Shown: piece by piece, positions 13,470 through 49,532 of the stretch
How the letters are laid out: each line of letters opens with the position of its first letter
Position numbering within the stretch: position 1 is the stretch's first letter
Assembly: GCA_021325635.1 (NCBI GenBank)
Contig: JAJPGV010000034.1
Span: 60,745 to 124,744, forward strand
Origin: Chloroflexota bacterium
GTDB lineage: Bacteria; Chloroflexota; JAJPGV01
Direction: 5' to 3'
DNA: 64,000 nt
The notes under the pieces: generated by a model
What the model saw: the letters and a program-made list of their open reading frames with translations, nothing else
Databases searched by the model: none
Told to the model about the DNA's origin: nothing
Translations under genes and position numbers: made by a program

Positions 13470-15383
13470 TCACACCAGAGCGGCTGCGTCCAGGCGTTTC
13501 AGCTCGGCGATAAGCGCGGGCACGACCTGGCGATAGTCGCCCACAATCCCCAGGTCGGCTTGCTCGAAGATTGGCGCGTCCGGGTCGTGGTTGATAGCCA
13601 CGATCGTCCCGGCGCCGCGGATGCCCGCGGTATGCGTGAATTCGCCCGATACGGCCACGCCCACGTACAGCTGTGGAGAGATGAACTTGCCGGTAACGCC
13701 AATCTGCTGCTGGCGTGGCAGCCAGCCGGCGTCGGCCACGCGGCGGGTCGCGCCGACAGCCGCGCCCAGGGCCGCCGCCAAGCTCTCGACATAATGCAGG
13801 TTTGTGGGGCCGCCGATGCCTGCCCCGGCGCACACCACACGGGAGGCGTGGTCGAGCTCGATGCCTCCCGTGCCTGCGCTGCGCTGGCAAGCCAGGACCG
13901 CGGATCGCGGCGCCGCCAGCGCAGGCGGCGGGGGGAGGGGAATGACGGCCGCCCTGCGCCCCATATCGGGCCGGCAGGGAGCTACGGCCCCGGGCCGCAC
14001 GGTTACCAGATGAGGAAGCGTACGCGAGTAGACCCGGGCAGCCACACTGCCGCCAAAGGCCGGCTTGATCTGACAGAGGCCTCGTCCGTCCAGCTCGAGC
14101 CCGATAGCATCGCCGGTGAGCCCCAGGTTAAGCCGGGCGGCGACTCGCGGGAGGTAATCACGCCCCATTGCCGTGGCCGGAGCGAGAACGGCCCACGGCC
14201 GGAAGCGGTTGATAGCTTCTGTCAGCACCTGGCTGAACGTCTCGGCCAGGTACGGATCCAGCCGCTTGTCGTCGGCAACGTAGACCGTATCGGCGCCGGA
14301 GGCAGCCAGGGCGGGGACGAGCTGCTGCACCTCGTACCCCAGCAGCACGGCCGCGGCCTGGCCACCCAGCTGCTGCGCCAGCCGGGCGCTGGCGCCGAGC
14401 AGCTCGAAGGTGGCCTCACGAATCTCCCCGTCCAGCTGCTCGACCACGACCCAGATGGCCTTGCAGGGATCTCCCAGGGTGGGGCGATCCGGCAGCGGCT
14501 CGAGCGCCGGAGGTGAGTCCCCGTCGAGCCGCAGCCGCCGGCGAAGGTGATCCACGAGCTCTTTGCCCGCGCGCGCCGGATCGTCGCCGGAAATGACGAT
14601 CGGACTGCGCGTCGAGCCCATTGCGAATACGCCGTCCACCGAGGTGGGCGATCCCTGGCTGCCTACCTCAGCGCTGTCCAGTCCGAGATCCGCGGCGGTG
14701 CGCACCTCCAGCGGCTTCGCCTGCGCCGCGACTCGCATGTCCGGCGAGAGAGGGAAGCGTTGGAGCTTGGTCCCCCAGCGCTCGTAGAAGAAGTCCACAT
14801 CGCCCTCGGGGATCGACGGCACGCGATCTCCGCGGATCAGCCGCTCGCCGGCGGTGATCACCGCCGGCAGACGGACCTCGATCGTCTCGATGCCGTCGTC
14901 CGTCTCGCGGTCCAGGATGGCCCGAGTCCCGCCGTCTTCGATCCGCAGCGAGGTGGCGTTCGTGACCTGCGGCACGTCCAGCAGCTCGGCGAGCTCGGGG
15001 CCCACCTGCCCGGTATCGGCGTCCAGACTGTTCCTGCCGCACAGCACAAGATCGGCGCGCTCTCGCCGAATCACCGCCGCCAGGGCTCGCGCCGTGGCCA
15101 GGGTATCGGCTCCGGCGAAGGCAGGATCGCACAGGTGTATGGCCCTGTCCGCGCCCACGGCCAGCGCACCACGCAGCACGTCGGCCGCCTGGGGTGGGCC
15201 CATGGTGATGACGACGACCTCTGCGCCCAGCTGTTCCTTGAGCGCCAGGGCCTGGGCGATGCCGCGGCGGTCGTACGGGTTCAGCTCGTTGAGCACGCCC
15301 TCCCGCCGGATGGTGTTGGTCTCAGGGTTGAAAGCGACGGCGTCGAGCTGTGGGACCTGCTTGACGCAAACGGCGACCTTCAA
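13470..15383 (-). CDS. Fused electron transfer flavoprotein, EtfB-like N-terminal half and EtfA-like C-terminal half
   Basis: 637 aa. N-terminus MKVAVCVKQVPQ is the ETF beta signature; C-terminus (PQLYVGVAVSGEFTHTAGIRGAGTIVAINHDPDAPIF) is the ETF alpha FAD-binding region. Confidence 0.85.
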   Translation of the reverse strand: MKVAVCVKQVPQLDAVAFNPETNTIRREGVLNELNPYDRRGIAQALALKEQLGAEVVVITMGPPQAADVLRGALAVGADRAIHLCDPAFAGADTLATARALAAVIRRERADLVLCGRNSLDADTGQVGPELAELLDVPQVTNATSLRIEDGGTRAILDRETDDGIETIEVRLPAVITAGERLIRGDRVPSIPEGDVDFFYERWGTKLQRFPLSPDMRVAAQAKPLEVRTAADLGLDSAEVGSQGSPTSVDGVFAMGSTRSPIVISGDDPARAGKELVDHLRRRLRLDGDSPPALEPLPDRPTLGDPCKAIWVVVEQLDGEIREATFELLGASARLAQQLGGQAAAVLLGYEVQQLVPALAASGADTVYVADDKRLDPYLAETFSQVLTEAINRFRPWAVLAPATAMGRDYLPRVAARLNLGLTGDAIGLELDGRGLCQIKPAFGGSVAARVYSRTLPHLVTVRPGAVAPCRPDMGRRAAVIPLPPPPALAAPRSAVLACQRSAGTGGIELDHASRVVCAGAGIGGPTNLHYVESLAAALGAAVGATRRVADAGWLPRQQQIGVTGKFISPQLYVGVAVSGEFTHTAGIRGAGTIVAINHDPDAPIFEQADLGIVGDYRQVVPALIAELKRLDAAALV

Positions 15384-16756: not shown

Positions 16757-19021
16757 TCACCCAATCTCCACCGGAAAGAGGTGGCTGGTCTCGTCGGGAT
16801 TCGAGGCGAGGGGCAGGCGCTGGCCGGAGGCGAGGTCGTAGACACCGACTTCGGCCTGGTACCGGCCGGGGGACAGGCTCGACACGTCGAGGACGTGGGT
16901 GTCGGGTACCAACTGCCCGGTGGGGAGCAGCGACGTGGGGTACCGGGCGCCGTCGGGTTGGCTGTCGTGCTGCGCCGCGAGCTTATCGTCCGGGCCCAGC
17001 AGGTGCACGAAAACCGTATAGTCCTTGCCGATGGGGCCTCTCGCCTGCCAGACGAGCGTGGCGCGGAGGCTCTTGCCGTCCTGCGTGAAGCTGTGGCCGG
17101 CCAGGGTGAGGTTATCGGCGAAGGGCAGACTATCCGAGACCGACGGCGATGTCGTCCGCGGCGGGAGCAGCATGAAGCGGCCCACTTCGGTCGTATCGTT
17201 GGCCAGGGGCGTGTCGCTTGCGCCTACTGCCGGCAGGTGGGGGCCACCTTCCACCGGCACGAAGATGCTAAGCAGCAGCGTATGCACCCCGCTTGCAGGT
17301 GGCTGCACGATGAGCCGGTGGCGGTCTCGCACCGTGAGGCCCGGCGTCCACTGACTGGTGGGCGCGCGTCCTTCGTCTGGCGTCGACAGCTCCTTCCAGG
17401 TGATGACGCCGTGGCTGTCGATCGCGGCCAGGTCCACCAGGTAGTCGAGGTCCATCGGGCGCAGCGCGCGCCAGACGAGGTCCACCGACACCGTATCTCC
17501 GGGATGGATGCCGGTGGGCGAGGGCGTTGAGTAGCCCACCAGCTCCAGTGCATCGCCGAAGCGCACCTGTGCCTGGTGCTCGATCGGGCCCTTATAAGGG
17601 GCAGGGAAGGCATAGGCAGGAACGAGCACCAGCAGCAGCGCACCCACGTTCAGTCCGACCAGGCCCAGGGGCAGGACCAGCAGGGCCTGCCAGCGACGCA
17701 CCAGTCGTTGGAGCCCGATCACGATGAGCAGCGTCAGCGCGGGAAAGGCGGGCAGCACCAGGCGCCACTGGTCGGCAGCGGCGTTGACCTCTATCCAGCG
17801 CGCCAGGGACAGGATGAACGCCACCGGCCACAGCAGCACCAGCAGGTGGCACAGGACGGCCGGGCTGCCGGCCAGCTGCGGCAGCGAGCGACGCATCAGC
17901 TGCCGCGCGGCAGCCACCGCCGCGGCCGCCAAGCCGAGCAGGCACAGCGCGTCGAAGGTGAAGTAGGCAATCGGGCTGACCGGTACGTTGGTCCAGCCGA
18001 AGACAGCCAGGGCGGTGCTGGTCCTCCCGAAGAGCTGGGCCAGTGCGGGCAGCAGGCCGATCGGCTGGGGTCGGAGCATCTGGCCGACCGCGGCGAGCAT
18101 CGGTTCCCAGCCCAGTGGATCTCCGAGCAGGATCCAATTGCGGGCGTACCACCAGCCGGCGATGCACAGAACCATGACGCCGACTGCGCCTGCCTGCAGC
18201 AGGGCTCGGAGTTGACGGCCCTGCAGCCAGCGCAGGCCCATGAAGCCGACGGCCAGCGCCACCGCGCTGAGGCCGCTCAGCTTGGCAAGCGCGGCATTGC
18301 CCAGCACCAGCCCCAGCAGCACTGTCTCCGTCCAGGGCGAGCCGTGATTCAGCCAGCGGAGCAGCAGGTACAGCGCCGCGGCGGACAGCCCGGCGATAGC
18401 GTTGTCCGCGTTCAGCACGCCGGAGATGAACAGCACCTGCGGGATCAGGCCCAGGATCGCCGCGGCGCACCATGACAGGGCGGGGGGTAGTCGCAGCTCC
18501 CGCGCGCTGCCGTAGGTAGCCAGTACGGCCAGCAGCAGGAACACCAGGTTGGCCAGCCGCATCGCGTGCAGCCGCAGCATGGTGCCCGTCCATGGGAAGG
18601 CTTCCTCGGCGCGGTGGTAGTAGAGGTTGACGTTGCCGTAATCGGTACGGTCCTGGAACGGATTGTGGTGATCCCACACGGGCACGTTGTCCGGCTGCGA
18701 CGGCGCCAGCCGAGCGATCAGCGATTCGAAGGCGTAATAGAACGGAGGCTGGCCGAACTCGGGATCTTGTCCGTTGACGCCCTGCAGCGGCAGTCCCTGT
18801 CCGCTGACCAGGCGATCGACGTAGTTGTAGTGGCCTGGCTCATCGGGCGCCTCGAAGGCCGGCGCCGCCACCGAGTACGCCGCGGCGAACAGGCAGCACA
18901 CAACGATGAGCGCAGCCAACGCCGGCCACCCCGAGGACCGGCCGCGTGCCGCGGTGGCTGTTGCCTCGGTTTGAGCGCCCGTGATCCGTGCCTGCGAGGA
19001 GGTGGAGACGGCTAAGCCCAT
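16757..19021 (-). CDS. GT-C fold membrane glycosyltransferase-like protein, paralog 2
   Basis: 754 aa. Hydrophobic N-terminal two thirds with a PDEPGHY loop motif; C-terminal modules share the DYTVFVHLL motif with the other two paralogs. Confidence 0.7.
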   Translation of the reverse strand: MGLAVSTSSQARITGAQTEATATAARGRSSGWPALAALIVVCCLFAAAYSVAAPAFEAPDEPGHYNYVDRLVSGQGLPLQGVNGQDPEFGQPPFYYAFESLIARLAPSQPDNVPVWDHHNPFQDRTDYGNVNLYYHRAEEAFPWTGTMLRLHAMRLANLVFLLLAVLATYGSARELRLPPALSWCAAAILGLIPQVLFISGVLNADNAIAGLSAAALYLLLRWLNHGSPWTETVLLGLVLGNAALAKLSGLSAVALAVGFMGLRWLQGRQLRALLQAGAVGVMVLCIAGWWYARNWILLGDPLGWEPMLAAVGQMLRPQPIGLLPALAQLFGRTSTALAVFGWTNVPVSPIAYFTFDALCLLGLAAAAVAAARQLMRRSLPQLAGSPAVLCHLLVLLWPVAFILSLARWIEVNAAADQWRLVLPAFPALTLLIVIGLQRLVRRWQALLVLPLGLVGLNVGALLLVLVPAYAFPAPYKGPIEHQAQVRFGDALELVGYSTPSPTGIHPGDTVSVDLVWRALRPMDLDYLVDLAAIDSHGVITWKELSTPDEGRAPTSQWTPGLTVRDRHRLIVQPPASGVHTLLLSIFVPVEGGPHLPAVGASDTPLANDTTEVGRFMLLPPRTTSPSVSDSLPFADNLTLAGHSFTQDGKSLRATLVWQARGPIGKDYTVFVHLLGPDDKLAAQHDSQPDGARYPTSLLPTGQLVPDTHVLDVSSLSPGRYQAEVGVYDLASGQRLPLASNPDETSHLFPVEIG

Positions 19022-19029
19022 GGCTGCGC

Positions 19030-21039
19030 TCAGGCCTTCTCCAGCGTCACTGGCACTGCGTCGTTTTCCAGTCGAGCGCCGGACGCGTCCGTGGCGGTGG
19101 CCCGAGAGTTGGGATTCGCACGGTCGTAGAGGCCAACGACCACCCGCGTCACCTGGCCTTCGAGATCCGGCGGCACCGGGATGCTGCGCTCGTCATGGAT
19201 GACGTCGCCGGCCTGCCAGCGCTGGGGCGGAAACATCCCGCCCATAGGGTAGCCGTCGTTCTGGACGAGTGGCTGGGGTCCACTGCCGAGCACGTGCACG
19301 AACACGGTGTAATCACCGGGCGCGGGCGCCGTCGCTCGCCAGGCCAGGCGCACCAGCAGCGCGCCGCCCGACAGCCGTGCGCGGGCGTCCTCGAGCGACA
19401 CCCAGCCACCAAGCTGCGCCACGCTTGCCGTGGCTGGGCCACGATCCACCCGGCCGGCGTACTCCAATCTGACGTGGCCTGGCTCGTAGCGGGCGACGTA
19501 CACGCCTCCACCTTTGCGGAAGGACTGCTCGAGCTCATTCAGGCCGGCACGCGGGCCCTGCATCCCGTAGGCCTCCTCCCAAGGGCGGGCGATATCGTCA
19601 TATGACAGCGAGGTGATGGGCAGTCGCTGGCCGCGCGCCGCCTGGACGGTGAGATCGAGACCGAAGTAGTCCGGCAGCATGGTCACGCCCGAGTGGCCCA
19701 GCAGGAAGTCCTGCTCCTTGGGCCCAATGAAGGCCGGCACGTTGACGTACGTCCGTCCGGCGTCCGGCCCTGGCTGGGTGGCGGTGTCGATGAGTTGGCT
19801 GACGACACTGGCCCCCTGCGCCAGCAGCCGCTCGCGCCGCGCGATGAAGCCGTAGCTCTCGACCAGGATCGCCGCGACGCAGGCCAGCCCAGTCGCGGCA
19901 GCGGCTAGGCGCAGCGCGGCAGCTGGGGTCACTCTGAGCGCGGCCGAAGGAGCAAGCGCAGCCGCCCACAGCAGGGCGATTCCGGCCGAGCTGAGGTACA
20001 GCAGGCGCGGAGCGTCGATGACGTAGTTGGGCCAGGGGAGCAGCAACGTCGCCGGGACGAGCGCCCCCGCGAACCACAGCAGCGCCAGCCCGGACACGAG
20101 CAGGCGCCGCCGCAGCGCGCTCAGCGCCAGCAAGACCAGCATGGTTACGGCCGCAGCCAGCAGCACTGTGCCGGCGTCGTCCCTGAAGCGCGGCAGCGAT
20201 GCCAGGCGCATGGCGTCGGGGTAGGCCAGTCCCTGCAGGAAATAGGTGGCGTTCAGCCGGATGGAGGGGCCGTCCAGCTTGAAGGCCGATGGCCAGCGCG
20301 GCACCGCCAGCCAGACGCCGACGAACGCCACCAGCTCGAGCGCAAACCAGCCGAGCACAGGACTGAGCCGGCCGGGCTGCTTTCGAAGCAGCAGCAGGAT
20401 CTCGATGCCGGTGAGGATCGGCAGCAGGGCAACCGTGCTTTCGTGGGTCAGGAAGGCGAGCCCGGCTGTCCCCAGGGCGCCCAGCAGCGCCTTGCGGCTG
20501 TGGCGCACGCGTGCATCCCAGTACAGCACGGCGCTGGCCAGCACGAACAGCGCGGCCAGGGAGTGGAAGATGGAATCCACGAAGCCGACCACCTGGTAGC
20601 TGAGCGGGAACAGGAGGAAGAGCGCTGCCGCGCACAGGCCGGCGGGCCCATCGAGCGCTCGCCGGCCAAGCTGGTACACCAGCCAACCACAGGCGATGTG
20701 GCTGGCTAGCGATAGCCCGTGCAGCACGAGCGGGTCATTTCGACCCAGGATGACGAAGCACAGCTTCCACAGCAGCAGCGTGACCGGACGGTAGTAGGGC
20801 GAGCCGCCGGCGCTGGTCAGGATCTCCAGCCAGCCGCGATCCGACGCCCGCGGCAAATCCAGCGCCGCGTCGAACATGATGCCGGCGCCGAGCGATCCCG
20901 CGTACGCGGCGATACCGATGCCGATGCAGACCAGCCAGGGAAGCAGCGTGGCCAACGTGCGGCCCAGGCCCGCGCGAGCCTTTGCCTTCGCTGGCAAAGA
21001 ACGTTCGAGGGGCGCCAGCCCGGTCTGCTGGGCGATCAC
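19030..21039 (-). CDS. GT-C fold membrane glycosyltransferase-like protein, paralog 3
   Basis: Multi-TM N-terminal region and C-terminal module with DYTVFVHVLG. ORF-track start 21303 overlaps cobM and is Arg-rich; trimmed to GTG at 21039, 19 nt after the cobM stop. Confidence 0.65.
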   Translation of the reverse strand: MIAQQTGLAPLERSLPAKAKARAGLGRTLATLLPWLVCIGIGIAAYAGSLGAGIMFDAALDLPRASDRGWLEILTSAGGSPYYRPVTLLLWKLCFVILGRNDPLVLHGLSLASHIACGWLVYQLGRRALDGPAGLCAAALFLLFPLSYQVVGFVDSIFHSLAALFVLASAVLYWDARVRHSRKALLGALGTAGLAFLTHESTVALLPILTGIEILLLLRKQPGRLSPVLGWFALELVAFVGVWLAVPRWPSAFKLDGPSIRLNATYFLQGLAYPDAMRLASLPRFRDDAGTVLLAAAVTMLVLLALSALRRRLLVSGLALLWFAGALVPATLLLPWPNYVIDAPRLLYLSSAGIALLWAAALAPSAALRVTPAAALRLAAAATGLACVAAILVESYGFIARRERLLAQGASVVSQLIDTATQPGPDAGRTYVNVPAFIGPKEQDFLLGHSGVTMLPDYFGLDLTVQAARGQRLPITSLSYDDIARPWEEAYGMQGPRAGLNELEQSFRKGGGVYVARYEPGHVRLEYAGRVDRGPATASVAQLGGWVSLEDARARLSGGALLVRLAWRATAPAPGDYTVFVHVLGSGPQPLVQNDGYPMGGMFPPQRWQAGDVIHDERSIPVPPDLEGQVTRVVVGLYDRANPNSRATATDASGARLENDAVPVTLEKA

Positions 21040-21058
21040 TCCGGCAGCGCGCCTGCTC

Positions 21059-21841
21059 TCATCCGCTGGATCGGAAGAGGTGCACGTAGTCCGGTGCGTA
21101 GAGCCGCGATCGCTCGTCCGACCGCTCGCCGAAGGCGGCGCCAACGAGAATGATGGCCTGCCGTGTGAATCGCGCCGCGCGCACCTTGCGCCCGATGTCG
21201 GCCAGCGTGCCGCGCACGATCTTCTCGTCCGGCCAGGAGACTTTGTACACCACCGCGCAGGGCGTCGTCGCCGGATAGCCGGCCGAGACCAGATCGCGTA
21301 CAACCTTGCCCATCATCGCCGCGCTCAGGAAGATGGCCATGCTGGCCTGGTGAGCGGCCAGCGTCCGCAGCTCTTCGAGCGCCGGAACGGCCGAAGCACG
21401 GCCCGAGCGCCGCGTCAGGATAACCGTCTGGCTGACGTTCGGCACGGTCATTTCCACGCCGAGCCGTGCCGCGGCGGCGAAGGCCGATGACACGCCCGGG
21501 ACGATCTCGTAGGGAACGCCTTCGCGCTCCAGGATGGCGATCTGCTCGTTGATGGCGCCATAGATCGATGGGTCGCCACTCTGCAGCCGCACCACGCGCT
21601 TTCCTTCGCGAGCCGCGGACAGCATGAGCTCCAGGGTCTGCTCCAGGGTCAGAGAGGAACTGCCGTGGATGTCCGCGTCCGGCCTGGCGAACTCGCACAC
21701 CCGCGCGTCCACCAGCGAATCGGCGAACACGATCACGTCAGCCTGCTCGATGAGCGCCCTGCCTTTGAGGGTGAGGAGCTGAGGATCGCCCGGTCCTGCC
21801 CCCACGAAGTGGATGGTCGCGGGCGGGCCGGCGGTGGTCAT
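21059..21841 (-). CDS. cobM: Precorrin-4 C11-methyltransferase (CobM/CbiF)
   Basis: 260 aa tetrapyrrole methylase (HFVGAGPGDPQLLT ... SGDPSIYG); start overlaps the cobI stop by 4 nt. Confidence 0.9.
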   Translation of the reverse strand: MTTAGPPATIHFVGAGPGDPQLLTLKGRALIEQADVIVFADSLVDARVCEFARPDADIHGSSSLTLEQTLELMLSAAREGKRVVRLQSGDPSIYGAINEQIAILEREGVPYEIVPGVSSAFAAAARLGVEMTVPNVSQTVILTRRSGRASAVPALEELRTLAAHQASMAIFLSAAMMGKVVRDLVSAGYPATTPCAVVYKVSWPDEKIVRGTLADIGRKVRAARFTRQAIILVGAAFGERSDERSRLYAPDYVHLFRSSG

Positions 21842-22527
21842 CGGCGTGTGACGATCATCTGGCCGAAGTAGTCGAGCGTCTGCTTACGCAGGGTGGTTAC
21901 GTCATGCACGATGCGCTGCTGCGGCCAACCTACCCGCTCGACGTAGATGGCGTCGTCGGTTCGACCGGTGGTGTTGAGCGCTTTGAGGACCGCTTCCAGC
22001 GCCATGCTCACCTTCAGGATCACGATCGTGTCGAAGGTGGCCAAGGCGTGCAGCACCTCACCCGTGGCCGGAACGATGGCTGCGCGGTCGTTGCCTTCCA
22101 CCAGAGGGACGTGCGCCGCTGCCGCTCCGGCGGTGACGGACGACACCCCGGGGACGATCTCGACTTCCACGTCCGGATAGCTCTGGGCGAGCAGCGGGTA
22201 GACGTGCACGAAGGTGCTGTACAGCATGGGGTCGCCCTCGGTGACGAAGGCCACCGTTTGGCCGCCGCGGGCCGTCTCGGCCAGTGTCTGGGCGTGCTGT
22301 CGCCAGCGCTCCAGGTTCTCTTCGCGCGACTTGGACATACGAAAGGGCATGTCTCGCACCTCGGCGCCGCTGCCGAGGTCGGCCAGGATCTTTCGAGCCA
22401 GGCTCTCGTGGTCGTCCCGGTTGGGCACAAAGATGACCTGCACTTCGCGCAGCAGCCGCCGGGCTTTGACGGTCAGCAGCTCGGGATCGCCAGGGCCCAA
22501 CCCGATGGCGTAGATGGTGCTCCTCAT
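21838..22527 (-). CDS. cobI: Precorrin-2 C20-methyltransferase (CobI/CbiL)
   Basis: 229 aa tetrapyrrole methylase (YAIGLGPGDPELLT); 4-nt overlap with the cobL stop. Confidence 0.9.
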   Translation of the reverse strand: MRSTIYAIGLGPGDPELLTVKARRLLREVQVIFVPNRDDHESLARKILADLGSGAEVRDMPFRMSKSREENLERWRQHAQTLAETARGGQTVAFVTEGDPMLYSTFVHVYPLLAQSYPDVEVEIVPGVSSVTAGAAAAHVPLVEGNDRAAIVPATGEVLHALATFDTIVILKVSMALEAVLKALNTTGRTDDAIYVERVGWPQQRIVHDVTTLRKQTLDYFGQMIVTRR

Positions 22528-23741
22528 CGATTCATTGCTGAGTCTACGGCAGCCGGGACCACCGCGATCCAGACCGGATTCAGGGCGCTGAGGCGCCGCC
22601 CGCCGTCCATGGCCTTGGCCCTGGCCACGTTGAGCTGCACGACCTCCGCGGTGGGATGGCGGTCGAGCAGCAGGCCGAGGTGCTCCAGCAGCGCCAGGTT
22701 GGCCACGAGCGGCGGGTCGATTGCATCCAGCAGCTCGGCCAGGCGTCCCCCGCTGCCGCCAAGGAACACCGAGCTCGGGGCCGGCAGGCCGGCGAGCGCC
22801 TCAGGCGCTTGTCCGGCGACGATGGTGACGTTGCCGGCTCCGTGGCGCTTGCAGTTGCGCTCGATGCAGGCCAGCTGCTCCGGGTCGCGCTCGATGGCGA
22901 AGACGTGCCCCCGCGGCATCAGCCGCGCCGCTTCGACCGCCAACGCTCCCGAGCCGGCCCCGACGTCCCACAACACGCCGTCGGGAGCCAGCCGCAGCTT
23001 CGACAGCGTGACTGCCCGCACCTCGGCCTTGGTGATCTGCCCGCGAACGCTCTCAAACCGATCGTCCGGCAGGCCGAAGGTCAGCCTCGCCGCGGTCTGG
23101 TCGCGCAGCAGCAGCAGCACGTTGAGCGGATCGAAGCGCTCCTCAGGCAGCTGCCACAGGCTGGACTCGACCACTCGCTGCCGCGTGCCCCCCAGGCGCT
23201 CGCATACAACCGCGCGGCAGTCTTCCATGCCGGCGTCTCGCAGTCGCGCGGCAATGACGCCCGGCGTGGACTGCGAGTCGGTCAGGATGGCTACAGTTCT
23301 GCCGCTGAGCGCCGCCGGCAGCAGCTCCTCGATGGGGCGCCCGTGGGCGGATAGGACGACCGCCTCATGCCAGGGCTCACCGATGGCCGCGAAAGCCAGC
23401 TGCACGCTGCTGGGACCGGGCAGGACGCGCACCTGGCCTGTCCCGAGCGCCGAGACCAGCGTATGGCCGATGCCGAACAGCAGCGGATCGCCGGATGCCA
23501 GGACGACTACCCGCTCGCCCTTGTCCATGGCGTCGCGAATGGCGGCGACGGACTCGCCTGCAGCGGCGCCGATCTCGATGCGCCGAGCTTTGTGATCGGC
23601 GAAGAAGCCCAGCTGGCGGCGTCCGCCGGCCAGCACAGTGGCTTCTCGGATCAGCGCCAGGGTGGCTGGGCTCAGGCTGCCCGCGCCACCGTCGGACAGG
23701 CCGACTACGATCACCGGGACGGTGCCGCCTGCGTCAGCCAC
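22524..23741 (-). CDS. cobL: Precorrin-6Y C5,15-methyltransferase, decarboxylating (CobL; CbiE/CbiT fusion)
   Basis: 405 aa; N-terminal tetrapyrrole-methylase half and C-terminal SAM-MTase half with VLWDVGAGSG motif. Confidence 0.9.
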   Translation of the reverse strand: MADAGGTVPVIVVGLSDGGAGSLSPATLALIREATVLAGGRRQLGFFADHKARRIEIGAAAGESVAAIRDAMDKGERVVVLASGDPLLFGIGHTLVSALGTGQVRVLPGPSSVQLAFAAIGEPWHEAVVLSAHGRPIEELLPAALSGRTVAILTDSQSTPGVIAARLRDAGMEDCRAVVCERLGGTRQRVVESSLWQLPEERFDPLNVLLLLRDQTAARLTFGLPDDRFESVRGQITKAEVRAVTLSKLRLAPDGVLWDVGAGSGALAVEAARLMPRGHVFAIERDPEQLACIERNCKRHGAGNVTIVAGQAPEALAGLPAPSSVFLGGSGGRLAELLDAIDPPLVANLALLEHLGLLLDRHPTAEVVQLNVARAKAMDGGRRLSALNPVWIAVVPAAVDSAMNR

Positions 23742-24825: not shown

Positions 24826-25448
24826 GTTTGGCCGGGCTGCGAGCCGGCCAACAGCAGCAGCGCGTTCATCGCTGCCGCTGCAACCGGTGATCCCCCGCGG
24901 CTGCCCTCCACGGTTATGAAGGGCGTCGCGCGCTTCATCAGCTCCTGCTTCGACTCCGCCGCCGCGACGAAGCCCACGGGTACGCCGATGATCAGCGCCG
25001 GCTGGCAGATGCCGGCATCCACCATGTCCAGCAGCGCCAGCAGCGCCGTGGGGGCGTTGCCGATGACGGCCAAACCGCCTTCCAGGTCGCTGGCCAGCTG
25101 GCGCATGCCCGCGGCGGCTCGGGTAATGCCGGCCGCCGTCGCGTCGGTGGAAAAGTCCGTAGACACCGCCACACGCACGGGGTTCGCGCACGCTCGCAGC
25201 CCGGTCGCCACCATGCGTACGTCGCACACGATCGGCGCCCCGGCGCGGATGGCTTCCAGGCCCGCGTCGACCGCATCGGGATGAACGTGGGCCAAGCCAG
25301 CCAGCGCCAGGTCGCCGGCGGCGTAGACCATGCGCTTGACCACGTCTCGCGCTTCCGAGGTCCATCCGCTGCAGGCAGGAATGGCGCCCTCGACCAGCTG
25401 CAGGCTGCGCGCTTCGATCTCCACCGGCGGTAGGCCGTAGCGGTCCAT
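24822..25448 (-). CDS. cobH: Precorrin-8X methylmutase (CobH/CbiC)
   Basis: 208 aa (MDRYGLPPVEIEARSLQLVEG ...). ATG at 25448 overlaps the cbiX stop (TGATG). Confidence 0.85.
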   Translation of the reverse strand: MDRYGLPPVEIEARSLQLVEGAIPACSGWTSEARDVVKRMVYAAGDLALAGLAHVHPDAVDAGLEAIRAGAPIVCDVRMVATGLRACANPVRVAVSTDFSTDATAAGITRAAAGMRQLASDLEGGLAVIGNAPTALLALLDMVDAGICQPALIIGVPVGFVAAAESKQELMKRATPFITVEGSRGGSPVAAAAMNALLLLAGSQPGQT

Positions 25449-26254
25449 CAGACTGCGGTCAGACACATGGCTCCCCAGGCGCAGTTGACGCCGGGCATAC
25501 GGCAGCCCATGCCGGCGCGACAGGGGCATAGCCCGGCCCGCGCTTCTTCGATGCGCTGCAGGAACAGGTCGAAGATCAGCGGATGCAGGCCCATGTGGCT
25601 GGCCACCTGCACCTCCGCGCGCGCGTCCACCGCCTGAACGCTGATGCGCTTGGCCAGCACCCCCGTGTTCAAGAAGTAGGGCACGACCAGCACGCGGCGG
25701 GCGCCCAGCCGAAAACAGCGGTCGATGCCTTGGGGCACGCCGGGCGGCGCGACGCTCACGAAGCACGATTCCACCCAGCCATAGCGGTTGCGATCCCAGA
25801 GCATGCGCGCGGTCTTGTGCAGGTCGGCGTTGGCTTCCGAGCTGAGGCTGCCGCGACCGACCAGCAGCACCGCCGTATCCGGACCGGGTTCGAATGGCGC
25901 CAGACGGTCCTCGATCACGCGCAGCAGCCGCTCGTCCACGCCCAACGGCCCGGCCAGCGTGACGCGAAGCTCCGGATGCCGCGCTCGAGCCAGCTCCAGC
26001 TGCTCCGGCATGTCGTCCCGCGTATGACCGGCAAAAAAGAGCAGCGCAGGCAGCCCCACAATGTCCGTGACACCGCGCGCCGCGGCCCGGTCGAACGCGG
26101 TCTGCACGTCCGGCAGCGTCTCGCCCGGATACTCGAGCACGCCAGCTTCCACATGCTCGCCGGTGCGCCGGCGAAGACCCTCGACGTAGCCCAGGAATTC
26201 GGCCGTTCCCTCGGGATCCTTGGTGCCGTGGCCCAAGACCACGATCCCCTGCAT
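25448..26254 (-). CDS. cbiX: Sirohydrochlorin cobaltochelatase, long form (CbiX-like) with Cys-rich C-terminal tail
   Basis: Two CbiX-type halves (MQGIVVLGHGTKDPEG ... VLLVGRGS) and a C-terminal Cys cluster (CPCRAGMGCRMPGVNCAWGAMC). Start trimmed to ATG 26254. Confidence 0.8.
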   Translation of the reverse strand: MQGIVVLGHGTKDPEGTAEFLGYVEGLRRRTGEHVEAGVLEYPGETLPDVQTAFDRAAARGVTDIVGLPALLFFAGHTRDDMPEQLELARARHPELRVTLAGPLGVDERLLRVIEDRLAPFEPGPDTAVLLVGRGSLSSEANADLHKTARMLWDRNRYGWVESCFVSVAPPGVPQGIDRCFRLGARRVLVVPYFLNTGVLAKRISVQAVDARAEVQVASHMGLHPLIFDLFLQRIEEARAGLCPCRAGMGCRMPGVNCAWGAMCLTAV

Positions 26255-26288
26255 GGCGGCCGTCAGCGCGCCCTCGGAGCCGTCGGCC

Positions 26289-28406
26289 TCAATTGCCCCG
26301 ACCCAGCGCGCCGCGCACGACGCCGGCCACACGGCTCGCGTCCAGCTCTTCGAGTCGCAGGTACTGCCCGCCCATGTCGGCCGCCAGCGTCCGCGCCAGC
26401 CCGAGCCGCAGGCCCGGGCCACCTTCGGTATCGATGACCACCGACTGGATGCGCTTGTGCGCGAATTGCGCGCCCAGCAGGCGCGACTCAGCCACGGGGT
26501 CACCGCCCAGCAGCGAGACGTTGGGCCGTCCGTCCGAGATCAGCACGAACAGCGGTACGGCGTCACGATGCAGCGTCTTGTGGCGGTCGATCGTCACCAG
26601 CCCAAGCTGCAGGGCGTGGCTTAGGGGGGTACGGCCGCCGGTAGGCAGCTCGCGCAGCTGGCGCTCGGCCAGATCGACGCTGTTAGTCGGCGGCAGCAGC
26701 ACCTCGCCGAACCGACCACGGAAGGCGATCATACCCACCTCGTCGCGCTTCTGGTAGGCATCGAGCAGCAGCGACATGACCGCGCCCTTGGCCGCCGCCA
26801 TGCGGTCCATGGCTGCCATCGAGCCGCTGGCGTCCACGGCGAACAGGATCAGGTTGGCAAGCTTCGTCTCGCGGACCTTGACCCGAACGTCCTGGGCCAT
26901 TACGGCGACCTTTCTTGCGGCCGCCTTCCTGTCCCGCTGTCCCGGCGCGGACGAGGCAGGGTCCGTTCGCTGCTGAGCCCGCCGCAGGGCTGACGCCCGC
27001 AGGGTAGCGTCGAGCGCGAGGTCTTGCACCTCGCCGTCCGGCTCTCGGCTGCCGACGTAGTGCCCCTGCCGGCCCGAGAGGCGCAGCTTGGTCCTGCGGC
27101 CGGCGTGTGGCTGCGTGACGCGCTCGGCCTTGGAGGCTCCCAGTGGTCGCGGCTGCAGCCGCTGTCCGATGTCGAACACCCGGTCTTCGGTGTCCCCTCC
27201 AGCCGGGCCATCGCCACCGCCGAGGCCCTCGTCGCCATCCGGGCGGTCGAGGTGCTGACGGATCGTTTGGTCGAGCTGCTCGCGGTCCGCTTCGGGGGAC
27301 TGGAAGGGCTGACGCCGGCGGCGATGAGGCAGGGCCAGCTCGGCGGCCTGGCGCACGTCGTCGTCGTTGACCTCGACGCGTCCGTTGTAGGCGGCAATGG
27401 TGATGGCCGTCTTGTACATGACGATGTCGGCGCGCAGCCCGTCGACCTGGAAGCTCGAGCAGATGTGGGTGATGAGATCGAGCATGCGTTCGTCGAGCTG
27501 CACCTTCCCCAGCAGCCGTTGGGCGTGGGCGATGCGTCGCCGCTCGGCCCTCTCGGCAGGCTGCCAGGTATGCGCAAAGCGCGCCGGGCTGCGCTCGAAG
27601 GCAATGCGGCGCCGCACTACCTGCGCGCGGTCGGCGGGCGGCAGGTCTCCCGCGACGTCCACCGAAAGCGCGAAGCGGTCCAGCAGCTGCGGGCGCAGGT
27701 CGCCTTCCTCGGGGTTCATGGTGCCGACCAGCAGGAACTGCGCCGGGTGCTGGAAGGAGATGCCCTCGCGCTGCACGTAGTTGCGGCCCATGGCCGCGGC
27801 GTCAAGCAGCACGTCGACCAGGTGGTCGTTCAGCAGGTTGACCTCGTCGATGTACAGGATGCCGTGATTGGCGGCCGCCAGCAGTCCCGGCTTGAAGCGC
27901 ACGCTGCCCTTGGCCAGCGCACGGCCAACGTCCAGACTGCCGACTACACGATCGTCGGTCGCGCCGACAGGCATCTCCACGATCTCGACTGCGCGGCGCG
28001 TGGACGGGAGCGACAGCGCCGGCTTGGGGGCCCTCACGGGGGTGAGGGGCATGGGCTCCAGGGGTGGATCGGTCTCAACAGGGGGTGGCGCCGCGCGTTC
28101 GTGCTGCTTGGACACCTTCTTGGCTCGCCGGTCGGCCTCCTGGCGGTGCTCGGCCTGCAGCGGGCAGGACTCGCCCGGATGGCAGTTGTACGGGCAGCCG
28201 GGCGTGACCTCGATCTCCGGCAGGAGGTTGGCCAGGGCACGAACCGCGGTCGACTTGGCCGTGCCCTTCTCGCCGCGGATCAGCACGCCGCCGATCTTGG
28301 GGTTGATGGCGTTCAGGATCAGCCCGAGCTTCATCTGCTCCTGGCCTACCAGGGCGGTGAAGGGAAAGACGCAGCCCGCGCCGGAACTCCCTGCGCGGTC
28401 ACTCAC
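26289..28406 (-). CDS. Chelatase ATPase, fused ChlI-like AAA+ and ChlD-like vWA domains (CobN partner)
   Basis: 705 aa. N-terminal AAA+ with Walker A (GEKGTAKST) and Mg-chelatase subunit I-like sequence; acidic/Pro-rich linker; C-terminal vWA domain with MIDAS motif (VDASGSM). Confidence 0.85.
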   Translation of the reverse strand: MSDRAGSSGAGCVFPFTALVGQEQMKLGLILNAINPKIGGVLIRGEKGTAKSTAVRALANLLPEIEVTPGCPYNCHPGESCPLQAEHRQEADRRAKKVSKQHERAAPPPVETDPPLEPMPLTPVRAPKPALSLPSTRRAVEIVEMPVGATDDRVVGSLDVGRALAKGSVRFKPGLLAAANHGILYIDEVNLLNDHLVDVLLDAAAMGRNYVQREGISFQHPAQFLLVGTMNPEEGDLRPQLLDRFALSVDVAGDLPPADRAQVVRRRIAFERSPARFAHTWQPAERAERRRIAHAQRLLGKVQLDERMLDLITHICSSFQVDGLRADIVMYKTAITIAAYNGRVEVNDDDVRQAAELALPHRRRRQPFQSPEADREQLDQTIRQHLDRPDGDEGLGGGDGPAGGDTEDRVFDIGQRLQPRPLGASKAERVTQPHAGRRTKLRLSGRQGHYVGSREPDGEVQDLALDATLRASALRRAQQRTDPASSAPGQRDRKAAARKVAVMAQDVRVKVRETKLANLILFAVDASGSMAAMDRMAAAKGAVMSLLLDAYQKRDEVGMIAFRGRFGEVLLPPTNSVDLAERQLRELPTGGRTPLSHALQLGLVTIDRHKTLHRDAVPLFVLISDGRPNVSLLGGDPVAESRLLGAQFAHKRIQSVVIDTEGGPGLRLGLARTLAADMGGQYLRLEELDASRVAGVVRGALGRGN

Positions 28407-28412
28407 AGCTCG

Positions 28413-31400
28413 TCATGTCTCCGTCCTTACCTCCAGCGCGGCTTCCATCTGCAGGTATGCCCCCTGGAGGGCATCGCGCTGCTCCTGCGAGGGATTTTTC
28501 CACATTCCACGCTCTATGGCTTCGAGCAGCCGCTCGGCGATATTGCGCAGCGCCCAGGGGTTTTTCTCGGCGAAGAAGGCCTGCATCGCCGGGTCCTGGA
28601 CGTAAGCCTGGGTAGTCCGCTCGTACATCCAGTCCTCAACCACCTGGGCCGTGGCGTCGTAGCCGAACAGGTAGTCGACAGTAGCGGCCAGCTCGAACGC
28701 GCCCTTGTAGCCGTGGCGCTTGATCGACTCGATCCACTTGGGGTTGATCACGCGACTGCGAAAGACGCGGCGGGCCTCGTCGTCCAGGTCGCGCACGCGC
28801 ACCAGCGCGGGATTGGCGCTATCCCCGAAGAACTGCCGCGGATTCTTGCCGGTAAGGGCGCGAATCGTGGCGATCATCCCGCCGTGGTACTGCATGTAGT
28901 CGTCGCTGTCGAAGATGTCGTGCTCGCGGTTGTCCTGGTTCTTGGTGGCAATGGAGATCTCGCCGAAGCGCTGCTCGAACTGTGGCCGGGCGGGCTTTCC
29001 GTACTCTTCGCGCGTATACGCGAAGCCGCCCCAGGCGGTGTAGACCTCGGCCAGGTCCTGGTCCGAGGCCCAGTTGCGCGCGTCGAGCAGCGGAAGGATG
29101 CCGGCGCCGTAGGTTCCCGGCTTGCTGCCGAAGATGCGATACAGAGCCTCCGGGGTCGATCCGTCACGGCGATAATGCGCCGCCACAAGATTGCGCTCGT
29201 CGCTCTCGTCCAGGCGGGCCACCAGCCGGAAGGCGTCATCCAGGAGCTGCACCAGGTTGGGGAAGGCGTCGCGGAAGAAGCCGCTGATGCGCACCGTGAC
29301 GTCGATGCGCGGCCGGCCCAGCTCTTCAATGGGGATCAGCTCCACGCCGGTCACGCGGCGGTTCTCCTTCATCCACACCGGCCGTACGCCCAGCAGCCAC
29401 AGGATCTCGGCGACGTCGTCGCCCTGGGTGCGCATGGCCGAGGTGCCCCACACGACGATGCCCACCGACTCGGGGTAGCGGCCCTCCTCGGCCAGGTACT
29501 TGGCCAGCAGCGCGTCCCCGAGCTGACGGCCGATGTCCCAGGCAGCGGGCGACGGCAGGGTCTTGGGATCGACCGAATAGAAGTTGCGCCCGGTAGGCAG
29601 GACGCTGGCCATGCCCCTGGTCGGCGCCCCCGATGGGCCAGGCGGAATGAATCGACCTTCGAGCCCGGCCAGCAGGTTGTCGATCTCCTCGCCGGTTCGC
29701 GCCAGTGCCGGGATCAGGGATTGCTTGACATAAGAACTGGTCGAGCATGCATCCGCCGCGACGGACAGTGCTTGCTCGGCGTCCTGCATGCCGAGAGCGT
29801 CGGCGACGGCCCGGTCCACCGGCTGTCCGTCGACGATCGCCTGCACCAGCTGATGGTTGCGAGCTTCGATGTGCTCGACGGCGTCACCATTGGAGCGCAC
29901 GCCGTCCAACGGAGGCCCGGAATACGGAGCGCCACGGTCGGCCAGCAGCACGGCGTAGTCGGGAATACCCAGCGCCTCGGCCATCGAGCTGCGCAGCGAG
30001 GGGGCCTCGACGTTGTCCAGCCGGGTGAGGGCCAGCAGCAGATCGACCAGCTGTTCGCCTGCCGGCGCCTGCCCGAGGACGTGCAGGCCGTCCCGGATCT
30101 GGGAGTCTTTCAGCTCACACAAGTAGCCGTCGACGTGCAGCAGGAAACCGTCGAAGTCCTCAGGCAGCTCGTCCTCGCCCAGGTCGTGGTGGAGCTGTGC
30201 CTGCACGACTGCATCCCAGATCTGCCCGCGGATGATGGGCGCCTTGCGTGGGTCCAGCGTCTGCACCTGGTAGTACTCGTCCATCAGCTGCTCGATGCGC
30301 ACGATCTCGTTGTAGGCATCGGCGGTCGTCATGGCCGGAATGAGGTGGTCGACGATGGCGGCGTGGCTGCGCCGCTTGGCCTGCGCGCCCTCGCCGGGGT
30401 TGTTGATGATGAACGGGTAGAAATGCGGCAAGTCGCTGATGGCCAGCTCGGGGTAGCAGCTTGGCGACAAGCCCAACGACTTGCCGGGCAGCCATTCCAG
30501 CGTGCCGTGTTTGCCGACGTGCACAATCGCGTCGGCCTGAAAGACGTCACGGATCCAGCGGTAATAGGCCAGGTAGTGGTGCGTCGGCGGCAGATCCGGC
30601 GAGTGGTAGATGGCGATGGGGTTCTCTCCGAACCCGCGCGGCGGCTGCACCCCCAGAAAGACGTTGCCCAGCAAGATCCCAGGCATGGCGAGGGAGGGCT
30701 GACCCCTCTCCGCCAGGAACACCGTTCCGGGCGGAGAGCCCCAGGCTTCGACCAGCTCGCGCTGGTTGGTAGGTGGGAATTGGTCGAACCAGGCGCGATA
30801 CTGCGCCGCGCTGGCGTGGCCGGCGGCGTCCCGGAGCTGCTGCTCGGTAAGCATCTCGCGGTCGTTGGAGCAGCGATCGATGAGCTGGAACACCAGCTCG
30901 TCGCCCGATTCCGGGAGGTCGCCGGTGTCGTACCCAGCCCCTTGCATGGCCTTCAGCACTTCGAGCACCGAGGCCGGCGTATCCAGCCCCACGGCGTTGC
31001 CGATACGGGCGTTCTTGGTGGGGTAGTTGCTGAGCACGAAGGCCACGCGCTTCTGGGCGTTGGGTGTGCGCCGCAGCCTGGCCCAATTGCAGGCCAGGCG
31101 GGCGAAGGCGTCCACGCGCTCGCGGTCGGCCACGTAGCGTAGGACGGGACTGCCCAAGAGCTCATCCTGCGCCAGCTCCTCCTTGAACGACACGGGCACG
31201 GTGATGATGCTGCCGTCGAACTCCGGCAGCGCGACGTTCATGGCCGTGTCGATGGGGCTCAGGCCGGCCGAGCTGCGCTGCCAGGCCTCACGCGAGCTGG
31301 TGCTCACGATGGCTTGAAGCACCGGCACGTCCAGCCGCTGCAGCCACTCCACGGAGCCGGCGCCCATGGAGAAGCTGAGTGTGTTGATGATGGCGTCGAC

Positions 31401-32228
31401 CCTGGCCTCGCGCAGCAGCGGCTCGATCTGGGCTGCGTGCTCCGGCTTGAGTGAATAGACGAAGATCGGCAGCGGCCGGCATCCCAGCTCCTGCAGCCGC
31501 TCCGCCAGCGCATCCACGAAGTCCGTGTTGCCACTCATCCAGTGGGCCCGATAGAACAGGAGGGCAATCGCCGGCGAGAGTGCCGAGTGCCGCGTGCCGG
31601 CGAGAGTGCCGCGTGCGGAGTGCCGGCGAGAGTGCCGAGTGCCGCGTGCCGCGTGCGGAGTGCCGGGCGCCGAGCCTTCTTCCCCGCTGTCAGGCTGGGC
31701 GTCGAGCGAAGCATCCTCGCCCTCCCAGTCGGCGTTCGTGGCCTGGTCGGGCTCGCCAGCTACAGCTCCGGCGCGCTGGTACAGCCCGAACCACGGCAGC
31801 TCGGCGGGCGGCTCAGCGGCCTCTCCGGACAGTCGGAGCAGCAGGTTGCGGACATTGGCCGCGCCGCCGTGGGACACGTAGGCGAAGACCTCGTGCACCA
31901 ACTCAGGAGGGGCTGTGCTGAGCGCGGTCAGCTCCGGGTCCGGGACGGAGTCGCCGGCGCACGCGATGAAGGGCACGTTCCTGCGCACACAGCAGTCGCG
32001 GATCAGGTCGAAGCCCGCCTCCAGCGTCCGGCGGCCGCCCAGCAGGCGCACGACGACGGCGGTCTGGGCGCGTTCCACCGTGTCCGCGACGAAGCGCTGC
32101 AGGACGCGGTCAGAGCTGAGCGAGGCCACGCTGCAGGCGCGGACGGCGGGGACTCCCTTCGGCAGGGCCCGAACCACGTTGGACAGTGTGAGGATGTCGG
32201 TGTCCGCGGTGGTCAAAAAGACGATCAA
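28413..32228 (-). CDS. cobN: Cobaltochelatase large subunit CobN
   Basis: 1271-aa ORF with CobN-like N-terminus (IVFLTTADTDILTL) and length. Apparent TTG start at 32228 preceded by GGGAGAG at 8-nt spacing. Confidence 0.9.
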   Translation of the reverse strand: MIVFLTTADTDILTLSNVVRALPKGVPAVRACSVASLSSDRVLQRFVADTVERAQTAVVVRLLGGRRTLEAGFDLIRDCCVRRNVPFIACAGDSVPDPELTALSTAPPELVHEVFAYVSHGGAANVRNLLLRLSGEAAEPPAELPWFGLYQRAGAVAGEPDQATNADWEGEDASLDAQPDSGEEGSAPGTPHAARGTRHSRRHSARGTLAGTRHSALSPAIALLFYRAHWMSGNTDFVDALAERLQELGCRPLPIFVYSLKPEHAAQIEPLLREARVDAIINTLSFSMGAGSVEWLQRLDVPVLQAIVSTSSREAWQRSSAGLSPIDTAMNVALPEFDGSIITVPVSFKEELAQDELLGSPVLRYVADRERVDAFARLACNWARLRRTPNAQKRVAFVLSNYPTKNARIGNAVGLDTPASVLEVLKAMQGAGYDTGDLPESGDELVFQLIDRCSNDREMLTEQQLRDAAGHASAAQYRAWFDQFPPTNQRELVEAWGSPPGTVFLAERGQPSLAMPGILLGNVFLGVQPPRGFGENPIAIYHSPDLPPTHHYLAYYRWIRDVFQADAIVHVGKHGTLEWLPGKSLGLSPSCYPELAISDLPHFYPFIINNPGEGAQAKRRSHAAIVDHLIPAMTTADAYNEIVRIEQLMDEYYQVQTLDPRKAPIIRGQIWDAVVQAQLHHDLGEDELPEDFDGFLLHVDGYLCELKDSQIRDGLHVLGQAPAGEQLVDLLLALTRLDNVEAPSLRSSMAEALGIPDYAVLLADRGAPYSGPPLDGVRSNGDAVEHIEARNHQLVQAIVDGQPVDRAVADALGMQDAEQALSVAADACSTSSYVKQSLIPALARTGEEIDNLLAGLEGRFIPPGPSGAPTRGMASVLPTGRNFYSVDPKTLPSPAAWDIGRQLGDALLAKYLAEEGRYPESVGIVVWGTSAMRTQGDDVAEILWLLGVRPVWMKENRRVTGVELIPIEELGRPRIDVTVRISGFFRDAFPNLVQLLDDAFRLVARLDESDERNLVAAHYRRDGSTPEALYRIFGSKPGTYGAGILPLLDARNWASDQDLAEVYTAWGGFAYTREEYGKPARPQFEQRFGEISIATKNQDNREHDIFDSDDYMQYHGGMIATIRALTGKNPRQFFGDSANPALVRVRDLDDEARRVFRSRVINPKWIESIKRHGYKGAFELAATVDYLFGYDATAQVVEDWMYERTTQAYVQDPAMQAFFAEKNPWALRNIAERLLEAIERGMWKNPSQEQRDALQGAYLQMEAALEVRTET
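31571..31666. repeat. Imperfect tandem repeat (period about 26 nt, roughly 3.5 copies) inside cobN
   Basis: Units of the form cggcgagagtgccg(agtgccg)cgtgc repeated head to tail; encodes the low-complexity stretch ARGTRHSRRHSARGTLAGTRHSALSP in a CobN linker. Confidence 0.7.
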
Positions 32229-32231
32229 GCG

Positions 32232-32420
32232 TCCAACTCTCCCTTTGTTGCGAAGCTCAGCGAGTTGGTAGCCCGAGGCTGTTTTCTGCCTCTCACAGTA
32301 GCGCCACTGGGCCGGGGTTGCACCGGCTTGCCAGCGCCCGGGCGACGTATTTTGGATTGTACGCGATAGGCCGCCGGCTGCCGGCTGGCACGGCGCTTGC
32401 GTCAGCGCCCACCCAACGCA
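32232..32420 (-). promoter_or_regulatory. Candidate cobalamin riboswitch-like leader upstream of cobN (partial match only)
   Basis: Minus-strand leader contains GGTGCAACCCCGGCCCAGTGGCGCTACTGTGAGAGG, resembling the conserved 5' core of cobalamin riboswitches as I recall it, directly upstream of a B12 operon. A canonical B12-box (GCCAGGAGACCTGCC-like) is not evident. Confidence 0.3.
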
Positions 32421-34124: not shown

Positions 34125-34197
<73 letters not shown>

Positions 34198-34277
34198 CAA
34201 AACCGGACAGTCCGTGCTTAGCACGCACACTCATGGGCGGACCGCACTTCCTGGCTCGAAGCTCGCGGAGGCGTGTT

Positions 34278-44113: not shown

Positions 44114-44728
44114 CTAGAACCGCTCCTCCAGCCAGTCGACGGCGATGTCGACGGCCGCGTCCTCGCTTCGCGGTTTGAAGGAGTGGTCGCCGGGAACTAC
44201 CTCAGAGGTAAAGGGCATGCGCACCAGCTGCTGCACCTCCCGCAGGTGCTCGGGCCGGCAAAGGGCGTCGCGATCGCCGGTGATGAAGAGCATCGGCGCG
44301 GCGATCCGGCTCATATGCGACCAATCGCGCGGTTTGGCGTTCTTGGCCATCCCGTGCAGCGGAAGCCCGTAGAACACCAGCGCACTCACGTCTTCCCGCG
44401 CGGCGGCCACGTAGGAAGACACACGGGCGCCGAAGGATTTTCCCAGCAGCACCAGCGGGCCGCGGCCGGCCATATACGTGATGGCCTGCTCCAGCTCCGC
44501 CATTTCCCGCTTGCTGCCGGCCGATGGCGCTCGGCGCGCGGTCAAATAGCTGAAGTTCCAGCGCAGCACCGTGAAGCCGTCCTCAGCCAGCCGCAGCGCG
44601 GTCTTTTCCAGGAGGGGGGTATCGAGGCCCCGGCCTGCCCCATGACTGGCGATGACTGCCGCCCGCCGGCCGCCCTCCTGCAGCATGCCCTCCAGCCCTT
44701 CGCCAAAGTGCACCTGCGTCGTGGTCAT
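44114..44728 (-). CDS. Alpha/beta hydrolase (dienelactone hydrolase-like)
   Basis: G-x-S-x-G nucleophile motif (LLGKSFGA) and alpha/beta-hydrolase-like sequence; trimmed to ATG 44728 (MTTTQVHFGEG). Confidence 0.7.
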   Translation of the reverse strand: MTTTQVHFGEGLEGMLQEGGRRAAVIASHGAGRGLDTPLLEKTALRLAEDGFTVLRWNFSYLTARRAPSAGSKREMAELEQAITYMAGRGPLVLLGKSFGARVSSYVAAAREDVSALVFYGLPLHGMAKNAKPRDWSHMSRIAAPMLFITGDRDALCRPEHLREVQQLVRMPFTSEVVPGDHSFKPRSEDAAVDIAVDWLEERF

Positions 44729-44779
44729 GGAGCTTCGGGGCCATTGTAGCGGCGGCCGTCGCGCGCTAGACTCGGAGCT

Positions 44780-45134: not shown

Positions 45135-45143
45135 TGCCCTCCG

Positions 45144-49420: not shown

Positions 49421-49532
49421 CGTCTTCTTCGGGGGCAGTCGCTGCTAACATCGAGAGAGTCGCGACTGGCGCTAAGGTGGAGCACCACCGGGGAGCGACC
49501 GTGGAAATTGCCGCGCGCCTGGGCACATCAAG

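Follow-up and report, generated by a model that had tools for sequence, protein, structure and literature searches.

Membrane glycosyltransferases of the GT-C class use lipid-linked donors, and some of them possess carbohydrate-binding modules (CBMs) that bind the acceptor (PMC11127046; bioRxiv 10.1101/2019.12.22.885152). The DUF2142 family includes WpsI/WpsJ, the proposed wall-polysaccharide polymerase/transferase of lactococci (PMC12599335, PMC9746298). Here we describe two genes for enzymes of this class, GT2 and GT1, which lie in tandem directly downstream of cobM in a 64,000-nucleotide stretch (the window) of contig JAJPGV010000034.1 from a Chloroflexota bacterium. The G+C content of the window is ~66%, and its closest named relatives are Chloroflexota metagenome-assembled genomes. 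Taking the evidence together, we favour, with a probability of roughly 0.8, a reading in which GT1 and GT2 are a distantly related pair of GT-C envelope enzymes, encoded by a conserved cassette that has moved behind cobM and has no cobalamin function.

Both genes are on the minus strand. GT2 (positions 19030–21039) encodes 669 amino acids and starts 19 nt past the stop codon of cobM, beyond a spacer spanning 21040–21058; GT1 (16757–19021) encodes 754 amino acids and starts 8 nt past the GT2 stop codon (spacer 19022–19029). These values, read directly from the sequence, agree with the coordinates, strand and gaps given in a first-pass annotation, which had described the pair as PMT/ArnT-like paralogues with related C-terminal modules, had suggested their co-transcription with B12 genes, a pairing it called unexpected, and had pointed to a third relative. 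That relative, GT3, is indeed present at 336–2999, also on the minus strand, and its 887-residue product is a PMT_2-family GT-C enzyme that shares the C-terminal modules. The GT1 and GT2 products are the same in an independent gene call on a matching contig from an uncultured Chloroflexota metagenome. A product identical to GT1 occurs in Logan SRR5581483, and one identical to GT2 is encoded on a JGI contig of 305 kb.

Fold and architecture of GT1, GT2 and GT3

Profile searches of Pfam gave assignments above threshold for two of the three proteins. GT1 matches DUF2142 (PF09913) with 50.9 bits against a gathering threshold of 30.1, over profile positions 1–365 of 395, and marginally passes the threshold for Pfam PMT at 23.9 bits. 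GT3 scores 30.7 bits against PMT_2 (PF13231), for which the gathering threshold is 26.1, and neither GT2 nor GT3 matches DUF2142. GT2 itself has no match in Pfam or NCBIfam, PMT_2 being missed even at E ≤ 1; among the 22 aligned sequences of its family, however, 12 match PMT_2, the best with an E value of 7.9e-9. GT2 itself falls under every Pfam threshold.

AlphaFold models calculated on the family alignments have a predicted local distance difference test score (pLDDT) of 92.2 and a predicted template modelling score (pTM) of 0.87 for GT1 (AF2), with corresponding values of 89.5 and 0.87 for GT2. The membrane core matches those of solved GT-C enzymes in structure, Foldseek returning ArnT, STT3 and Pmt4 for the core of GT1, and the solved families nearest in structure include the heterodimeric Pmt1–Pmt2 and EmbA–EmbB. 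When the family profiles were compared with the sequences in the PDB, that of GT1 matched yeast Pmt1 (6p25) alone, and weakly (E 4e-5); that of GT2 gave no match. We conclude that GT1, GT2 and GT3 are GT-C-fold, PMT/ArnT-like membrane glycosyltransferases, as the first-pass annotation had supposed, and that they are new members of known GT-C families.

The first outer loop of GT1 carries a near-invariant F-E57-x-P-D60-E61-x-x-H64 motif, in which E57, D60, E61 and H64 are each at least 90% conserved among 49 sequences. The equivalent loop of GT2 has a conserved F56-D57 followed by a conserved Y-R84-P85, with D57 at least 90% conserved among 22 sequences, and a D42-D43-E44 motif is present in GT3, where a single sequence was read. 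GT1 and GT2 have ~11 transmembrane helices each, as judged by hydropathy and the helices of the models, and this fits the range of about 7–13 for GT-C enzymes. When the positive-inside rule is applied to the helices of the models, 11 membrane helices are predicted for GT1 and for GT2, and we infer that the N-terminus is cytoplasmic and that the acidic loop and the whole of the C-terminal region lie outside the membrane. GT2 has an extracytoplasmic α/β domain at residues ~422–535, and GT3 likewise has an extracytoplasmic domain.

The relationship among the three proteins is more remote than the word paralogue might imply. In BLASTP comparisons of GT1, GT2 and GT3, significant similarity is confined to the shared C-terminal module of ~100–130 residues, for which identities are 26–34% and E values 6e-14 to 2e-9. 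A description of the three as recent paralogues was for this reason rejected. Distant homology beyond the module became apparent only when profiles were compared: the GT1 and GT2 family profiles align with a probability of 99.8% (E 9e-30) over 519 columns at 21% identity, the alignment beginning at the third membrane helix and running to the C-terminal end. On these sequence comparisons, GT1 and GT2 are distant members of one superfamily with a shared mobile module and not recent duplicates.

The module is present in one copy in GT2 (19033–19434), two in GT1 (module 1, 17156–17587; module 2, 16760–17155) and three in GT3 (module 1, 1080–1475; module 2, 714–1079; module 3, 339–713), all on the minus strand, and the relatedness of these C-terminal regions is borne out by BLASTP and by the module alignment. 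The boundaries correspond in the models to β-strands at residues 541–667 of GT2 and to β-strand blocks at 482–618 and 628–753 of GT1; in GT3 they come from the module alignment. The copies share the consensus L-x-W...DYxVFxHL...Q-D...P...PTS-W...D...G-x-Y...VG-x-YD, and in the models the fold is a β sandwich. Foldseek matches for the tandem modules of GT1 are the fibronectin type III pairs of RbmA, the C-terminal barrels of transglutaminase, and arrestin; those for the GT2 module are NPC2, ASF1 and, from the O-antigen transporter Wzt, the carbohydrate-binding domain. When the six modules, along with two middle domains, were compared with Pfam at E ≤ 10, nothing emerged beyond a weak match of GT3 module 2 to Wzt_C (PF14524; E 0.0084) and one to an RbmA-like family (E 0.24).

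A profile built from the six copies and run against 1.84 billion cluster representatives recovered 26,862 proteins at E ≤ 1e-3, of which 17,742 are at E ≤ 1e-10. The best of these are ~1,000 residues long and have three to four copies each, and those that are named are Chloroflexota ‘glycosyltransferase family 39’ or hypothetical proteins. Among the 48 top matches, 13 have a core assigned to PMT_2, 7 to PTPS_related, 4 to TMEM260-like, 4 to PMT and 2 to YfhO, five families that are all polytopic and of GT-C type, and GT1 adds DUF2142 to the core types that bear the module. In none of the 48 does a Pfam model cover the module itself, and literature searches brought up nothing specific on a Chloroflexi GT39 or GT-C module. 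The module is therefore an abundant accessory domain of GT-C enzymes without a model in the copies of Pfam and NCBIfam searched.

Comparison with characterised systems places the pair near, and distinct from, several of them. Sequence identity of GT1 and GT2 to the solved PMT (GT39) and ArnT (GT83) enzymes is only 9–18%; the MIR domains of PMT are absent from GT1 and GT2, whereas neither PMT nor ArnT has the C-terminal β-sandwich modules. GT1 resembles WpsI/WpsJ in being multi-pass and GT-C-like, in scoring above the Pfam gathering threshold, and in that the polysaccharides on which it is proposed to act, lipid-linked or of the wall, would be met outside the membrane. It differs in its two additional C-terminal modules, and in that WpsI/WpsJ are encoded in dedicated wall-polysaccharide clusters with other glycosyltransferases and flippases; the functions of WpsI/J are moreover proposed and not proven (PMC12599335). 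The closest architectural parallels are EmbA/B/C, AftD and the GT136 founder ORF12, in which a GT-C core is likewise followed by extracytoplasmic β-sandwiches, these binding the acceptor glycan. By analogy with the CBMs of these enzymes, the module of GT1, GT2 and GT3 most likely binds the acceptor, and it may represent an undescribed family of acceptor-binding domains.

Gene order around the pair

The order GT2 then GT1 is kept in seven relative lineages (L002, L003/4/5, L008/9, L010, L011, L014 and L015). Exact look-ups in the first five of these give orthologue identities of 45–61% for GT2 and 46–54% for GT1. At the junction between the two genes in relatives there is a 4-nt stop/start overlap (three lineages) or else a gap, of 2 nt or of 85 nt, and the gene 5′ of the cassette is a divergent MmgE/PrpD gene or, in L008, ATP-binding cassette transporter and PEMT-like genes. 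The two genes are also found apart: GT1 follows PrpD without GT2 in L012/13, GT2 lies between enolase and hrcA without GT1 in L006, and the majority of Chloroflexota genes of the GT2 family lack GT1 as a neighbour. The GT2-then-GT1 arrangement is thus a conserved cassette in a narrow Chloroflexota clade, and its conserved order and overlaps indicate that the two genes are probably on one pathway.

When a single genome for each GTDB species was scanned with the GT2 profile, 79 loci were recovered. Almost all bear the titles of Chloroflexota lineages, among them Thermomicrobiales, Nitrolancea hollandica, Anaerolineae and Thermoflexales, and two are labelled just ‘uncultured bacterium’. At 11 of 78 Chloroflexota loci there are at least two GT-C genes, and three module-bearing GT-C genes are present in the window. 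Tandem GT-C arrays appear to be recurrent among the Chloroflexota loci sampled. Between two and four GT-C genes, resembling GT2, GT1 or both, are clustered at each of nine loci in distant Chloroflexota genomes (L026, L031, L037, L040, L047, L077, L081, L083 and L086), and the records P0099 and P0105 bear consecutive NCBI accession numbers and belong to one contig.

In the window the cassette follows a compact cob run, all on the minus strand, with cobN first and cobM last. The genes, identified by Pfam and NCBIfam matches, are cobN (28413–32228), a ChlI/D-like chelatase subunit (26289–28406), cbiX (25448–~26290), cbiC (24822–~25440), cbiD (23734–~24820), cobL (cbiE/T; 22524–23741), cobI/cbiL (21838–22527) and cobM/cbiF (21059–21841), the inner gene starts being taken from the beginnings of domains. 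The product of cobM, the precorrin-4 C11-methyltransferase, scores 341 bits against TIGR01465 (cutoff 259.65). At 25448–32228, a chelatase of the ATP-dependent, late-insertion type (CobN plus ChlI/D-type) is encoded beside a chelatase of the early-insertion CbiX type, and within the run cobJ/cbiH, cobK/cbiJ and cbiG were not seen.

The association of this run with the cassette is found at no other locus examined. When CobM, CobI, CobL, CbiD, CbiX and CobN were used in tblastn searches of 92 GT loci, cob genes were recovered only from the window's own contig, and no cob gene lies within 6–10 kb of a GT1 or GT2 homologue at any of the 91 other loci. The converse metagenome scan with CobM gave 80 loci, and at none of them does a homologue of any of the three GT proteins lie within 6 kb. 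In the closest relatives, whose CobM is 79–88% identical, the order cbiX–cbiD–cobL–cobI–cobM is retained with cobM still the final gene, followed by carboxyltransferase and amidase genes or by unrelated open reading frames. The 563-kb JGI contig Ga0209810_1000020 contains both a cassette (L004, record range 75118–96977) and a cob run (L098, 151804–164565), ~70 kb apart, and likely shows the ancestral, unlinked arrangement. The genes that flank either unit in relatives (PrpD, nitroreductase, luciferase-like, COXG, MoCoBD, carboxyltransferase and amidase) are missing from the window, save for a 45%-identical FAD_binding_5 paralogue at 63054–63887, and their absence points to rearrangement.

Since the linkage is lacking in the other loci, the adjacency is lineage-specific and best explained by a rearrangement; given how many module-bearing GT-C genes there are, it is no surprise that some should by chance come to lie beside an operon. 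The pairing of the GT genes with the cob run looks like an accident of gene order, without functional tie to cobalamin synthesis. The meaningful B12 pairing that the first-pass annotation implied was to be judged by conservation of synteny, and on that measure (none of 91 GT loci, none of 80 cobM loci) it fails.

Transcription from the cob run into the cassette is a separate matter. The gaps of 19 nt and 8 nt leave too little room for a conventional terminator plus promoter, and a consensus scan of 15–28 kb found no promoter-like sites. The same region has three terminator-like sites, compared with 4.1 expected from shuffled sequences, none of them at either GT junction. Downstream of GT1 are ~200 nt of non-coding DNA, followed by a gene for an NMT1-type lipoprotein solute-binding protein; in folding, the 216 nt 3′ of GT1 show no advantage over shuffled sequence (z 0.92). 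Co-transcription of cobM, GT2 and GT1 by read-through is plausible on this layout, and there may be a promoter inside cobM.

At the head of the run, a candidate adenosylcobalamin riboswitch (RF01482) spans 32234–32358 on the minus strand, 6 nt 5′ of the cobN start. At the gathering threshold, Rfam reports no cobalamin riboswitch, and the candidate surfaces only with relaxed settings; it covers the full-length model with 32.6 bits against a gathering value of 50, at an E value of 0.012 in 19 kb or 1.8e-4 in 301 nt. Its position fits; it probably controls the cob run and belongs to a divergent Chloroflexota form of the cobalamin riboswitch. With a full-length model match 5′ of cobN, a promoter regulated by B12 could here be the source of transcripts that read through into the cassette. 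We see no indication of selection for such read-through, which is plausibly incidental at most.

Elsewhere in the window, a single 637-residue open reading frame at 13470–15383 (minus strand) fuses electron-transfer flavoprotein β (residues 1–180) and α (about 340–630), and a tRNA-Arg(TCT) gene is at 34125–34198. A class A bacterial RNase P RNA (286 bits) occupies 44782–45136 of the plus strand and overlaps the 5′ part of the longest-frame call for an α/β hydrolase gene (44114–44893, minus strand), whose true start therefore lies further in. A ZMP/ZTP riboswitch (59.8 bits) at 49452–49531 (plus strand) is directly 5′ of purH (AICARFT/IMPCHase, 49533–51065), the standard arrangement. Also on the plus strand are a gene for a phage-integrase-family recombinase (55285–56214) and, 2 kb past it, an open reading frame with a flagellin-hook IN motif (58213–59139).

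Proposed function and its alternatives

By analogy with characterised GT-C enzymes, GT1 and GT2 would each work at the outer face of the cytoplasmic membrane and draw a sugar from a donor linked to polyprenyl phosphate, with catalysis depending on the conserved acidic residues that come just past the first membrane helix (D60/E61 of GT1, D57 of GT2). An envelope acceptor, probably a wall or surface glycan, would then receive the sugar. The C-terminal modules, predicted to be extracellular, most likely hold this acceptor and would tether it as a polymer. GT2 and GT1 probably share a substrate, acting in successive steps or as a complex. A rearrangement would have put the cassette directly behind cobM in this genome, where read-through from the cob promoter may occur.

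In three-component GtrA/GtrB/Gtr* systems, a GT-C enzyme such as these would take the Gtr*-like role, working with a flipped polyprenyl-phosphate sugar. Pfam searches of the window and of seven contexts in relatives (L002–L013) found neither a GtrB-like synthase (a GT2-family enzyme making polyprenyl-phosphate sugar) nor a GtrA-like flippase adjoining the GT genes. A gene for a ManC-like mannose-1-phosphate guanylyltransferase is present at 45560–46636 (plus strand), 24 kb from the cassette and unlinked to it; its product might supply the GDP-mannose needed to make a polyprenyl-phosphate-mannose donor.

The acceptor is the point at which a serious alternative arises, for the pair could be protein O-glycosyltransferases, like the bacterial PMT-like enzymes, acting on secreted or surface-layer proteins and not on polysaccharides. 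Likeness of GT-C fold does not settle the type of acceptor. The stronger match of GT1, however, is to DUF2142, the studied members of which are proposed polysaccharide polymerases/transferases (PMC12599335), and the modules resemble, if anything, the O-antigen-binding domain of Wzt. The kinship with the proposed WpsI/WpsJ through DUF2142, and the likeness of the modules to the domain by which Wzt binds carbohydrate, tip the balance slightly towards a glycan acceptor, and we regard protein O-glycosylation as unlikely.

It is similarly doubtful that GT2 and GT1 form an obligate heterodimer, in the manner of Pmt1–Pmt2 or EmbA–EmbB, in place of two independent transferases. The conserved gene order, together with the 4-nt stop/start overlaps that suggest translational coupling in three lineages, would suit such an assembly, as would the presence of both heterodimers among the nearest solved structures. 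Each gene nevertheless also occurs singly, GT1 in L012/13 and GT2 in L006, and GT1 is not next to most GT2-family genes of Chloroflexota, so that a heterodimer is possible and not required.

With regard to the cob run, we consider it very unlikely that an operon under riboswitch control has captured the cassette as its 3′ end, such that envelope glycosylation is switched with cobalamin status; if true, the capture would constitute a regulatory link not described for GT-C enzymes. Full functional membership of the cob operon, in which the cob promoter and B12 riboswitch would tune glycosylation to cobalamin or the enzymes would assist corrinoid handling at the envelope, is less probable still, there being no conserved linkage.

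We thus return to the reading of GT2–GT1 as an envelope glycosyltransferase cassette that has come to lie behind cobM. Being lineage-specific, and with rearrangement as its simplest explanation, the adjacency has little consequence for B12 biology. The sole mildly novel element is the module, which lacks a Pfam model and merits a domain model of its own. For the Chloroflexota, a phylum whose envelope biochemistry is poorly known, GT2 and GT1 provide a concrete candidate pair for envelope glycosylation.

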